Shown: positions 9,902 to 59,061 of the stretch, piece by piece | Numbering within the stretch: the stretch's first letter is position 1 | Layout: every line of letters begins with the position of its first letter | Source: Escherichia phage EC6 | DNA length: 64,000 bases | Reading direction: 5' to 3' (one strand) | Sequence record: JX560968 | Notes under the pieces: model-generated | Database searches by the model: none | Told to the model about the DNA's origin: nothing | The model's input: the letters and a program-made list of their open reading frames with translations, nothing else | Position numbers and translations under genes: made by a program

Positions 9902-10272
9902 ATGAAAAACAGAACAAACAAAGGCCAGTTTAAAAAGGCCAATCTGGAAACCCATCTGGAAGACCAAAAGGCTCTCGTAACAAAAGCTCACTTGTAAAAG
10001 CTCAACTGACCATTGATAATTCTGCTGAGTTTGCTGCAAAGTTGTTTGAGGCGATTGTTACAAGGGACGCTGCTAAACTTGCAGAGTTTGGGTTAAACAC
10101 AGATGACGTAACCATCAAGAGCATGATTGAGGTCGGTAAAACCATCTTTACTCACTCAGCAGGTGAGATGAAAGCACTTGCAGCAGACACTAAGAAAACC
10201 CCTGATAATGGTGGTCAGCCACAGACAGATAACAAACCAACGTTCTCTGCTGTAGCGACTCTCAAAAAATAA
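9902..10272 (+). CDS. hypothetical protein with GNPSGRPKG motif; reading frame broken at A5 run 9932-9936
   Basis: ATG at 9902 reads 10 codons, then the open frame continues in the -1 frame through 10272. Junction context is TTTAAAAAGG. Confidence 0.35.
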
Positions 10273-10284
10273 TTTTAAAAGGTG

Positions 10285-10314
10285 TTGACAGACTCTACAA
10301 AGTTGCTCTAAAGT
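10285..10314 (+). promoter_or_regulatory. sigma70-like promoter (TTGACA -35)
   Basis: TTGACA at 10285-10290, then TAAAGT at 18-nt spacing; upstream of the 10354 gene. Confidence 0.4.
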
Positions 10315-10353
10315 CTGTCACATCAAACAACAAATGAGAGAAGAGAGTAAAAT

Positions 10354-11769
10354 ATGAGCGAATTATTTAAACATGCGCACCTTCATGCAGGTCGAACTGA
10401 AAATGGTGCTGTAAACCATACTTCATCAATGTCTTCTCTGGTAGACTTCTACAAAGCCGCTGGCTCAAGCCGTAGCAATGTAGAAATCTTACCAGACCTG
10501 TTCTACAAAGCTTTGCGTGAGGATGTTGATGTTGCAGTTCGTATTTTGCTTCACATGCGAGATGTACGAGAAGGTATGGGTGAGCGTAAAGCCTTCAGAA
10601 CTGTTTTACTTCAAGCAATCGAAGATAAAGTTTTAGAGCCTACACAGGTTCTTCGTATTATGGATAAGATTGCAGAACTTGGTCGTTTTGATGACTTCAA
10701 AATCTTCGTAGGTACTCGTTTTGAGACAGATGCCTTCAAACATTTAGAAGCAGCATTACTAGACCCTGAAACAGCAGGTTTAGCAGCCAAGTGGCTACCA
10801 CGAGTAAAACCACGCCACAAACAGTTTGTAAAACGTTTCTGTAAGTTTGCAAACTTAAGCGAGAAAGAGTACCGCACACTGTTATCTGCATTGTCTGATA
10901 CGGTTGAGCAAAAAATCTCTGCTAATGAGTTTGGTAAGATTGACTACAGCAAGATTCCTTCACTCGCTGCTGCACGTTACCAAAAACTCTTTAACCGTAA
11001 AGATGGAGAACGCTACAAAGCTTACATTGAGTCCTTATCAAAAGGTGAGACTAAGATTAACGCTGGTGCTGTTTACCCATACGATGTGATTAAGTCTATC
11101 AAGCATGGTAATGCAGATGTTGCTAATGAGCAGTGGAAAGCACTACCAAACTGGATGGCAGAGGGTGAAAACATCTTGTGTATGACTGATGTCTCAAGCT
11201 CAATGTCTTGGGTGAATCTTGGCTCAATCACTGCCATTGATATTGGTGTATCCCTTGCCTTGTATGTAGCAGAACGTAATACGGGTTGCTTTAAGAATGA
11301 GTTGATGGTTTATTCAACAAACCCTCATTTCATCGAACTGAGTGGTGATTTGAAAAACCGTCATCGTCAGGTGATGCGTCATGTTGAATATGGCTCAACT
11401 AACTTACAAGCAGCTTTTGACCGTATTCTTGAGACAGGTAAGAGAAACAACTTGACTCAGAAAGATATGCCAAGTAAGCTTATCATCTTCTCTGATATGG
11501 AGTTCAATCAGGTTGATGGTGCAAATGGTCGTACAAACTTTGAAGCAATTCGTAGTAAGTACGAAAAAGCTGGATATGAGATGCCACAACTGGTATTCTG
11601 GTACTTAGCAAACCGTAATGGTACTTGCGAAGTGTCTGTTAAGGATAACGGTGTAGCAATGGTATCTGGTTTCTCTCCAGCCACTTTAAAAGCTTTGCTT
11701 GGTGGTGAGAAGTTTGACCCAATCAGCGTAATGCTCAAAGCAGTAATGATTGACCGTTATATCTGGTAA
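10354..11769 (+). CDS. vWA-domain protein (471 aa) with N-terminal alpha-helical domain
   Basis: MIDAS-like motif D-x-S-x-S (CMTDVSSSM) opening a predicted Rossmann-like C-terminal domain; immediately upstream of the tRNA cluster. Confidence 0.55.
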   Translation: MSELFKHAHLHAGRTENGAVNHTSSMSSLVDFYKAAGSSRSNVEILPDLFYKALREDVDVAVRILLHMRDVREGMGERKAFRTVLLQAIEDKVLEPTQVLRIMDKIAELGRFDDFKIFVGTRFETDAFKHLEAALLDPETAGLAAKWLPRVKPRHKQFVKRFCKFANLSEKEYRTLLSALSDTVEQKISANEFGKIDYSKIPSLAAARYQKLFNRKDGERYKAYIESLSKGETKINAGAVYPYDVIKSIKHGNADVANEQWKALPNWMAEGENILCMTDVSSSMSWVNLGSITAIDIGVSLALYVAERNTGCFKNELMVYSTNPHFIELSGDLKNRHRQVMRHVEYGSTNLQAAFDRILETGKRNNLTQKDMPSKLIIFSDMEFNQVDGANGRTNFEAIRSKYEKAGYEMPQLVFWYLANRNGTCEVSVKDNGVAMVSGFSPATLKALLGGEKFDPISVMLKAVMIDRYIW

Positions 11770-11787
11770 AAAGTTTTAAAAAGGGTA

Positions 11788-11816
11788 TTGACAATGTGTT
11801 TAATACCCTTTAATAT
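11788..11816 (+). promoter_or_regulatory. sigma70-like promoter (TTGACA-N17-TAATAT)
   Basis: Consensus -35 and good -10 with 17-nt spacer, embedded in the inverted repeat AAGGGTATT...AATACCCTT. Confidence 0.5.
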
Positions 11817-56984: not shown

Positions 56985-57003
56985 TCTCTAAAAGTTACTT
57001 TAA

Positions 57004-57030
57004 AGCCCTGTACTTAGTATGGGGCTTTTT
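57004..57030 (+). terminator. rho-independent terminator
   Basis: Hairpin AGCCC...GGGGCT followed by T5. Confidence 0.5.
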
Positions 57031-57046
57031 CATATGGAGAGTCACA

Positions 57047-58094
57047 ATGGAGAAGTACACATTAAAAAAACCTTCCCGATTCAGTTACACATGTTTTTAT
57101 CGACTCTGACAGTATTGCCTATAAAGGGGCTTGTGTAGTTGAGAAAGCAAAATATAAATACGTCAATAAACTCACAGCAGAAGAGTCTGAACCATTTGAT
57201 AATGCAAAAGATGCTGCAAGATGGTTAGCAGACCAGAGAATCCTTGTGGAAGAGCTTGGCCTAGCATTTGATGAAGATGAATGGGAAAGACAGACTTGGA
57301 AAGAAGCTAAGAGTGAAAAAGAAGCTATCATGGCTACTCAACAGGTGCTTCAGGAATGGCTTAAGGTTGTTGGTAAAGAAAGAACTTGGGTAGGTTATTT
57401 AACAGAGAAAGGTGTGCATAAACATAAAGACATTAAAGGTCTTGAGCACCAATATCAAGGTAACCGCAAAGATGCTGTCACACCAACACACTTAGTTGCT
57501 TGTCGTGAATATCTTCTGTCAAGACCAGAGTTCAAACTAATTCTTGATGGATTTGAAGCTGACTCTATCGTGATTGCTAAAGCTGAAAAGATGGGTAAAA
57601 AGGCTGCCTTAATGAGTATTGATAAAGACCTTCGACAAGCTGAAGGTACTTACTGTATTGATATGACTTATGAAAAGTCGCCTTTGATTTTCATTGCTGA
57701 TAACAACGTTGGTGAAATTTGGGATTGTCCAATAAAATCGACACCAAAAGCTAAGAAGACAGTTGGGGTAGGTTTTAAATTTCTTTGCTATCAAGCCGTG
57801 GCTGGTGATAATGCGGATAATTATTTCGGTTTAAAGGGTGTTGGTAAGGTTACTATAATGAAAGCCCTTGAAGGTAAAACCACTTACAAAGAGTGTCTTG
57901 ATGCAATTTATGAGCTTTATGCTAAGAAAGAGTCATACACTTATGTCTCGTGGGATGGTCAAACAATTACCAGAACACCTTTAGAGTTAATGCAGCAACA
58001 CTTTTTCTTAGCTTATCAGGAAAGAAACAAGAAAGATGATTTCACTTTTGATAAGTATGGGTGGACACCAAATGTTAACTCAACAAACTCTTAA
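57047..58094 (+). CDS. flap endonuclease / 5-prime-3-prime exonuclease (RNase H-like); reading frame interrupted at A7 run 57064-57070
   Basis: ATG at 57047 (MEKYTLKK) then a +1 frame change into HVFIDSDSIAYKGA (compare T4 RNase H ICLIDFSQIAL) and the later helix-hairpin-helix motif AGDNADNYFGLKGVGKVT. Confidence 0.6.
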
Positions 58095-58563
58095 AGAATA
58101 CCTACACTATGACCCCGAAACAGGGGTCTTTACTTGGATTAAGAAGTCTGCTAAGCACACAAAAATTGGTTCTGTTGCAGGTACAAACTTAAAAGGTTAC
58201 ATCCGAATTTACTTGTTTGGTAAAGGGTACTATGCGCATTCATTAGCTGTCCTATATATGGATGGTTATCTTCCTGAGTGTGTTGACCACAAGAACCATG
58301 TAACTCTAGACAATCGTTGGTTAAATCTGAGGGCATGTACACTATCAGAGAACCAATGCAATAGGTTGCTTAACAAAAACAATAAATCCGGTGTCAAAGG
58401 TGTGTACTACAACAAGAGGTATGGTAAGTGGTCTACACAGATAACTTTTCAGAAGAGAGTTTACTTCTTCGGCAACTATGACACGATTGAGGAAGCAGCA
58501 GAAGTTGTGAATAGAGAACGTCAACGTTTACACAAAGAGTTTGCTAATAAAGGTGATGAATGA
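58072..58563 (+). CDS. HNH homing endonuclease with AP2 DNA-binding domain
   Basis: HNH_3-type motif GYIRIY...HSLAVLYMDGYLPECVDHKNHVTLDNRWLNL and AP2-like GVKGVYYNKRYGKWSTQITFQKRVYFFGNYDTIEEA. Confidence 0.6.
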   Translation: MLTQQTLKEYLHYDPETGVFTWIKKSAKHTKIGSVAGTNLKGYIRIYLFGKGYYAHSLAVLYMDGYLPECVDHKNHVTLDNRWLNLRACTLSENQCNRLLNKNNKSGVKGVYYNKRYGKWSTQITFQKRVYFFGNYDTIEEAAEVVNRERQRLHKEFANKGDE

Positions 58564-59061
58564 GAAAAATTAAAGGTTTTGGTAATTGCCCTGAGTATGG
58601 ACATTGGATTTCACTTTGTGGGGAAATTGACCCAGCAAAGCATTTTGGTTTTGTCTACCTAGTGTACTGCAAAAAGACTGGGCAGTACTATTTGGGTAAG
58701 AAACAGTTTAACAGTGTGACCAAAAGAAAAGTTGCTGGGAAGACTCGGAAGAAGGTAGTCACTAAGGAGAGTGATTGGATGACTTATGAGACTTCTTCTG
58801 AGTATATTAAAAAACGATATTGAGAGCTTTGGAAAAGAATTTTTTGACTTTTACATTATTCAAACCTACTACACAAAAGGTGGCCTAGTCTATGGTGAAG
58901 CAAACCTTCAACATAAATTCGATGTAATGACAAAAAGGATTGACTCTAAGCTCAGACTCTTCTACAATGCCAACATTGCAGCAATTAAGTTTATCACTAA
59001 AGAAACTTATGAAGATGCTGAAAAAAGAATCCATAAGGTAATGAAAGCAAATTGTGCTTGA
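58560..59061 (+). CDS. GIY-YIG endonuclease-like gene, frame broken at A6 run 58809-58814 (possible pseudogene)
   Basis: GIY-YIG-like GFVYLVYCKKTGQYYLGKK at the N-terminus; the downstream frame (+1) carries the rest of the domain. Confidence 0.4.

Follow-up and report, generated by a model that had tools for sequence, protein, structure and literature searches.

Why are the genes for terminase, portal and several other proteins each spread over two reading frames in the sequence of Escherichia phage EC6 (record JX560968)? We analysed 64,000 nucleotides of this record (the window; all positions refer to it), for which an earlier reading of the letters alone (the original prediction) had reported frame breaks at A/T homopolymers. 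With a probability of about 95%, judged by comparison with relatives, these breaks are technical single-base errors at A/T homopolymers in one record rather than properties of the phage. The finding concerns data quality and is not a biological feature. In the real phage, the genes for terminase, portal, prohead protease, tail fibre and exonuclease and the other affected genes are almost certainly intact, as they are in relatives.

Frame breaks of the window and their state in relatives

The window belongs to a Felixounavirus (Felix-O1-like myovirus), with about 98% identity to many complete genomes. A 6-kb query from its packaging and head region matched 274 phage records, all of them Felix-O1-like myoviruses of Escherichia, Salmonella and Shigella (genus Felixounavirus). 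Most of these matches (213) lie at 95-99% identity; the top identity is 98.0%, and none of the 274 records is identical to the query. The gene order is the usual one, and 25 tRNA genes are present. In the annotations of relatives, each of the following genes is a single open reading frame (ORF): terminase large subunit (about 1,602-1,617 nt), portal (1,467-1,476 nt), head maturation protease (1,347 nt), tail fibre (about 2,350-2,370 nt), a "minor tail protein" (801 nt), exonuclease (1,041 nt) and another gene of 498 nt.

We located the breaks by tblastn of relatives' ORFs against the window and by whole-window alignment to four references (Shigella phage Tf, Escherichia virus TH10, JLBYU32 and SP22). 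The states of relatives were retrieved, by patterns matching either state, from IMG/VR viral contigs, JGI/ENA metagenome contigs and GTDB genomes. The resulting state table comprises every fetched locus, i.e. 40 distinct contigs or records (GenBank phages, IMG/VR, metagenomes). In total, 13 inactivating lesions were found in 12 genes: 12 single-base indels that break 11 genes, and one premature stop. Non-coding DNA contains another five private indels of a single base. At all 17 tabulated lesion sites, the state of the window was found in none of the 3 to 34 other contigs available per site. The lesions are listed below with the states of these contigs in brackets.

490..497, + strand: A6 followed by CC; the extra C at 496 shifts the C-terminus of gene 15..546, which is seen as ORF 15..512 in the window; relatives have A6 and a single C (AAAAAAC in 18/18)
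5404..5411, − strand: T7, against T6 in the closest relatives; gene 5129..5711 is split into 5129..5443 and 5385..5711 (T7 at 5410 in 0/16)
5961..5966, − strand: A5 plus an apparently spurious C at 5966 (plus-strand view), which breaks gene 5711..6056 (AAAAA in 15, AAGAA in 1, extra C in none)
9932..9936, + strand: A5, against A6 in relatives; −1 break in the DUF5681 gene 9902..10272 (A6 in 22/22)
11891..11895, no strand: A5, against A6 in relatives; non-coding, upstream of the tRNA array, where relatives annotate no gene (A6 in 19/19)
14329..14335, no strand: CAAAAAT, with one base lost at 14333, in the spacer between tRNA-Lys and tRNA-Ala; most relatives have eight bases, e.g. CAAACAAT or CAAACATT (window state in 0/21, 8-base variant in 20/21, another 7-base variant, CAAAATT, in 1/21)
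18760..18764, + strand: A5, against A6 in relatives; −1 break in the terminase large subunit gene 17620..19235, within the nuclease domain (A6 in 34/34)
19648..19652, + strand: A5, against six bases in relatives; −1 break in the portal gene 19243..20717 (AAAAAA in 21, synonymous AAGAAA, Lys-Lys, in 6, five bases in none)
21724..21731, + strand: T3A5, against T4A4 in relatives; TTA is changed to TAA at 21726-21728 in the S49 prohead protease gene 21561..22907 (TTTTAAAA in 18/18, with TTA at the codon in all 18)
28212..28216, no strand: T5, against T6 in relatives, in the T-tract after an intergenic hairpin; non-coding (T6 in 5/5)
39739..39745, + strand: intact T6 with an apparently spurious G immediately before it (5' side); the tail-fibre gene 38139..40509 has a +1 break here (T6 without G in SME50, PHB11 and LF82P1)
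41157..41187, no strand: T4 to T3 at 41157 and T6 to T5 at 41183-41187, flanking the bidirectional terminator that lies between 40783..41154 and thyA; non-coding, and weaker evidence, with variable adjoining sequence
52114..52120, + strand: intact T6 with an apparently spurious G immediately before it (5' side); gene 51861..52661, which relatives annotate as "minor tail protein", has a +1 break here (T6 without G in 15/15)
52634..52637, + strand: A4, against A5 in relatives; second break in gene 51861..52661, 8 codons before the stop (A5 in 13/13)
55692..55696, + strand: A5, against A6 in relatives; −1 break in the small gene 55616..55908 (A6 in 13/13)
57064..57072, + strand: A7 followed by CC; +1 break in the codon 8 region of the 5'-3' exonuclease (FEN-like) gene 57047..58094; relatives have AACAAAAC or A7 and a single C (at 57071, TTAACAAAAC in 13, TTAAAAAAAC in 3, CC in none)
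58809..58815, + strand: A6 plus an apparently spurious C at 58815; +1 break in the SegE-like GIY-YIG endonuclease gene 58560..59061 (A6 directly followed by G in 11/11)

The tblastn frame of the relatives' proteins switches from 2 to 1 at 9932, from 1 to 3 at 18760 in the terminase and at 19648 in the portal, from 3 to 1 at 39739 in the tail fibre, at 52114 and at 58815, and from 2 to 3 at 57071 in the exonuclease. All seven breaks of the original prediction therefore lie exactly where it had placed them, including the one at T6 52115 that it had called only possible. The three A5 runs at 9932, 18760 and 19648 are, as it had said, each flanked as T-AAAAA-G and each associated with a −1 shift. 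For the four breaks assigned to A7 57064, T6 39740, A6 58809 and T6 52115, the +1 direction held, but the lesions are not changes in the length of the homopolymers. These runs are as long as in relatives, and the additional base adjoins them: at 57071 and 58815 it is a C on the 3' side of an A run, at 39739 and 52114 a G on the 5' side of a T run. The count of at least seven affected genes was correct but incomplete: it rises to at least 12 with the breaks at 496, 5410, 5966, 52634 and 55692 and with the TAA at 21726-21728 in the protease gene.

Several of these sites deserve comment. The window's state of the terminase gene was not found in the IMG/VR, metagenome or genome collections. In the portal gene, the presence of AAGAAA in six contigs indicates that two lysine codons, and therefore six bases, are kept by selection. 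The protease lesion is not a frameshift: it turns Leu56 into an in-frame stop, in a protein that matches Peptidase_S49 (Pfam) and whose remainder is 99% identical to relatives. The exonuclease gene is broken 8 codons from its start, and three relatives naturally carry A7 and a single C at this place.

Adding or removing one base per coding site yields a single ORF in each of the 11 genes with indels, and the repaired lengths equal those annotated in relatives or differ from them by a few codons. After repair, gene 15..546 encodes 176 aa and gene 5711..6056 encodes 114 aa, both as in relatives, and gene 5129..5711 encodes 193 aa, as does CDS0014 of phage Tf (582 nt). The repaired tail fibre has 789 aa, as in PHB11, and gene 51861..52661, with both of its sites repaired, has 266 aa (801 nt), again the length found in relatives. 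Protein domains (Pfam) were recovered in the repaired DUF5681 protein (123 aa; DUF5681), terminase (538 aa; Terminase_6N and Terminase_6C) and portal (491 aa; Portal_Mu), together with a weak match to the 5'-3' exonuclease SAM fold in the exonuclease (348 aa). The small gene 55616..55908 gives 97 aa.

The repaired gene 58560..59061 (166 aa) matches SegE_GIY-YIG (Pfam, E 4e-27). By this domain it is a homing-type endonuclease gene and not an essential one. Its counterparts in public records (Tf CDS0084, JLBYU32_128 and SP22 S22E157_1070) are named "NAD synthetase" or "baseplate hub assembly protein", which is probably annotation drift.

An indel spectrum restricted to the window

The lesions fall into few types. 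Run-shortening deletions change A6 to A5 at 9932, 11891, 18760, 19648 and 55692, T6 to T5 at 28212 and 41183, and A5 to A4 at 52634. In the insertions, the run has the same length as in relatives, and a C stands directly 3' of an A run (496, 5966, 57071 and 58815) or a G directly 5' of a T6 (39739 and 52114), the latter being the same C-after-A event on the other strand. The only true lengthening of a run is the change from T6 to T7 at 5410.

Homopolymer lengths had been proposed for tabulation against related genomes, and this comparison revealed a steep rise of shortening with run length. When only runs with length and flanks conserved in three or more references are counted, 5 of 18 A6 runs and 1 of 9 T6 runs are shortened in the window, against 1 of 53 A5 runs and none of more than 1,400 runs of three or four bases. 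No G/C run is shortened, but only five G/C runs of length 5 are present, and their integrity is therefore uninformative. Among the private deletions in conserved sequence, 8 out of 10 fall in A/T runs of at least five, which represent 1.8% of the bases (P ~5e-13). Likewise, 6 out of 7 private insertions in well-aligned sequence are located at the 3' edge of an A run of at least five on either strand, while such edges account for 0.34% of positions (P ~1e-14). The inserted base is a C in all six of these run-edge insertions, with a chance of 0.0014 if the three non-A bases are equally likely. Because a C after an A run is a G before a T run on the opposite strand, this symmetry fits a process that depends on the direction of reading.

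The same spectrum extends outside genes. Among the five non-coding lesions, 11891 is found upstream of the tRNA array, 14333 in a spacer that separates two tRNA genes, 28212 and 41183 in the T-tracts of terminators, and 41157 next to the second of these terminators. The shortening from six to five is seen at three of them (11891, 28212 and 41183), while the other two (14333 and 41157) are different deletions. Run shortening in non-coding DNA shows that the process is independent of reading frames and of coding function.

Each reference was also taken in turn as the odd one out. Their private indels of 1-2 nt occur almost only in hypervariable intergenic DNA, and the four references have essentially zero private frameshifts within conserved genes. 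The window carries 590 private substitutions, compared with 565 to 906 in the references. With a similar number of substitutions and abnormal indels, it is therefore an ordinary distinct isolate that is abnormal in its indel spectrum only. Substitutions that shift the boundary between two homopolymers are not in excess in the window relative to the four references, and the nonsense change of the protease stands alone in this respect.

We did not count the apparent indels at 12100-13000, 30418/30436 and 46242, which correspond to hypervariable or poorly aligned stretches or to compensating pairs. The tRNA array (11934-17190) contains its 25 tRNA genes with small ORFs in between, and, across all genomes, the indels of the alignment are most concentrated in its spacers at 12100-13000 and 13500-14200. 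One of the references, TH10 (MT446388.1), is flagged UNVERIFIED, is without annotation and has run-length differences of its own, e.g. A7 against A6 at window position 7148 and A5 at window position 12711. By these differences, public Felixounavirus records are not uniformly clean.

Technical error, recoding, slippage or real mutation

The errors most probably arose at A/T homopolymers during base-calling or at the consensus stage. Two types of error cover nearly all lesions: runs of six being under-called (A6 to A5 or T6 to T5), and a false C being called right after a run of A5 to A7, or a G before a T run when reads come from the opposite strand. Taken as given, the lesions would demand −1 shifts, +1 shifts and stop read-through simultaneously, a combination on which a lytic phage could not rely for its terminase, portal, protease and tail fibre; the shifts in genes do go in both directions. 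The original prediction had preferred an error of the record to recoding, and we reach the same preference from the private nature of the lesions, the indels in non-coding DNA, the dependence on run length, the nonsense codon and the lack of a stimulatory structure.

Recoding supposes that the sequence is correct, that terminase, portal and the DUF5681 protein are made by a −1 slip of tRNA-Lys on T-AAA-AAG, and that the other proteins need a +1 slip, for example of tRNA-Phe on the U6 runs at 39740 and 52115. The codons AAA-AAG are indeed in the zero frame at 9932, 18760 and 19648, where a −1 slip gives exactly the protein of relatives; this is the only point that favours −1 recoding. A +1 slip within U6 at 39739 and 52114 would restore the frame with one change from Ile to Ser. 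However, the arrangement is present in 0/22, 0/34 and 0/27 contigs at the three −1 sites, where relatives have one ORF, and 12 independent origins on one terminal branch would be needed. T-AAA-AAG is not a canonical X-XXY-YYZ heptamer, its first base being T, and only the A-site AAG re-pairs perfectly; no re-pairing is possible at the +1 sites AAA-CCU and AAA-CGA. The 70 nt downstream of the seven first-listed sites fold no better than shuffled sequences (z from −0.55 to +0.77), and an Rfam scan of the window found no frameshift element. Moreover, run-shortening deletions also occur in non-coding DNA, and the nonsense codon of the protease would not be rescued without another mechanism. Obligatory shifts of low efficiency in portal, terminase and tail fibre are also hard to square with a productive lytic phage. 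The −1 frameshift of dnaX (A-AAA-AAG with an upstream Shine-Dalgarno sequence and a downstream hairpin) resembles the three window sites by its AAA-AAG codons and by the fact that a −1 slip restores the protein. Unlike dnaX, these sites start with T and not A, have no downstream structure and are not conserved in relatives; both products of dnaX are functional, whereas the truncated products of the window would be useless. Such frameshifting is exceedingly improbable as an account of the breaks, and recoding is essentially excluded. We give equally little credence to the narrower claim that at least one of the T-AAA-AAG sites (18760, 19648 or 9932) truly has A5, with an essential protein made by an obligatory −1 slip of the host tRNA-Lys. 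If it did, a dependence on frameshifting would have newly arisen in the packaging genes of a lytic phage.

Transcriptional slippage, in which the RNA polymerase adds or drops a base in A/T runs so that a fraction of the mRNAs is in frame, would agree with the position of all the breaks in or beside such runs. Productive slippage by bacterial RNA polymerase needs about nine A/T or more, and the runs involved have just 5-7 nt, a length that the original prediction had rightly considered short; the window has only two A/T runs of at least seven. The likeness to slippage on long A/T tracts is thus limited to location. Six lesions stand outside the run itself, as C or G, at the four +1 sites listed originally and at 496 and 5966. 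A correction would require the deletion of a base that is not part of the run, or a precise −1 change in the run that also alters the protein. Slippage would also leave unexplained the nonsense codon, and the states of the window are absent from relatives. We regard it as vanishingly improbable. Real mutations in a defective genome (a non-viable variant, a heterogeneous stock with minority indels or a degraded metagenomic population, faithfully recorded) are very unlikely. Homopolymers are also hotspots of genuine replication slippage, and the lesions are private to the lineage. Nevertheless, a replicating lytic phage could not accumulate 13 inactivating lesions, spread over 12 genes that include those for terminase, portal, protease and tail fibre, and otherwise remain about 98% identical to its relatives with an ordinary substitution load. 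Replication slippage alters the length of a run and does not place a C beside an intact A run six times, and the strand-symmetric signature implies a process dependent on read direction.

As to the technical source, a flow-based chemistry in which T, A, C and G are flowed in a cycle (454 or early Ion Torrent) has perhaps an even chance of having produced the data. In 454, the nucleotides are flowed repeatedly in the order T, A, C, G (PMC3117331). With flow chemistries, long homopolymers are under-called and flows of zero length can be over-called, and assemblies gain frame-shifts (PMC3623719). With such a chemistry, a long A run would be under-called, which would turn A6 into A5, and the next flow after A, that of C, would be over-called from zero and give a false C. 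In all six adjacent insertions, the inserted base is the nucleotide flowed directly after the run base; that the flow order is the cause is our inference. The window resembles 454 and Ion Torrent PGM errors in its steep length-dependent under-calling, its inserted bases, its A/T runs as the most error-prone places and its frame-shifts (PMC3623719, PMC2323236), and C, the inserted base, comes next after A in the T-A-C-G cycle of 454 (PMC3117331). The classical "carry-forward" of 454 was rejected as a source of the insertions. It inserts the run's own base, near the run but not adjacent to it (PMC2323236, PMC3764156), while the C of the window adjoins the run and differs from its base; the weaker reading of an over-call of the next flow was kept. 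The error rate per 6-mer is also much higher than is usual in a finished consensus.

An artefact of long-read (nanopore-type) assembly or polishing is a less probable but plausible source. Run shortening sets in sharply between five and six, which would suit such a source, since consensus errors of pore-based data also typically shorten 6-mers with a threshold of this kind. To our knowledge, there is no pore-based rationale for spurious C after A runs. This pattern (6/6, chance 0.0014) is a prediction of a fixed A-then-C flow, the flow order being that given in PMC3117331. With flow chemistry or a long-read artefact alike, the cause is technical.

Several points weigh against technical error, or against flow order as its origin. 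The error is read from comparison with relatives only. About one-third of all 6-mers are wrong in the consensus, a high rate that points to low coverage or to a poor consensus caller. The three −1 sites are zero-frame AAA-AAG, where a −1 slip gives exactly the relatives' protein, and the tRNA-Lys of E. coli is known to slip on AAA-AAG. As for flow order, no spurious A after a T run was seen among the insertions of the window, the nearest to such a counterpart being the single boundary shift from T4A4 to T3A5 in the protease gene, and the C-after-A pattern is not a documented signature of 454. A literature search for a Felixounavirus paper on such errors gave nothing specific.

Genuine interruptions and consequences for the record

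Introns were considered as a cause of the reported breaks and discarded: a scan against Rfam at gathering thresholds returned tRNAs only, and the breaks are single bases. The DNA polymerase gene (− strand) is split in another manner, by an insertion of 805 nt (48233-49037) between ORFs 48996..51209 and 47675..48229. The insertion carries an Endonuclease_7 ORF (48442..48924) and contains the only sub-threshold match to a group I intron (48896-49009; 22.9 bits, E 0.003). It is common to Tf, TH10 and JLBYU32 and is not found in SP22, which has one polymerase ORF of 2,700 nt. This looks like a genuine interruption by a mobile intron. The intron and homing-endonuclease interruptions of Felixounavirus share with the frame breaks the appearance of an essential gene as two ORFs; in contrast, the polymerase interruption is an inherited insertion of 805 nt, whereas the lesions described above are private and of one base.

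Other segments of the window differ from the references by presence or absence. Between the exonuclease and the SegE-like gene, positions 58036-58563 (+) carry an ORF for a homing endonuclease of 175 aa with HNH_3 and AP2 domains, and a segment of about 500 nt (58058-58556) is missing there from all four reference genomes. A segment of about 258 nt at 15016-15272 (+), between tRNA-Arg and the next gene, is also missing from the four references; it carries ORF 15034..15276 (+), of 80 aa and without Pfam match. SP22 has additional endonuclease ORFs inside the region of the tRNA array.

As given, the record leads to truncated or split genes for terminase, portal, protease, tail fibre and exonuclease. 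These split genes could be mistaken for pseudogenes, recoding or novel small ORFs. ORF boundaries near A/T runs of at least five should be re-checked against relatives throughout the window, and every downstream annotation needs correction. The errors leave so specific a signature (six-base runs read as five bases, and a false C behind an A run or a false G ahead of a T run) that the record can be corrected by comparison, and the same signature may be used to flag similar records.

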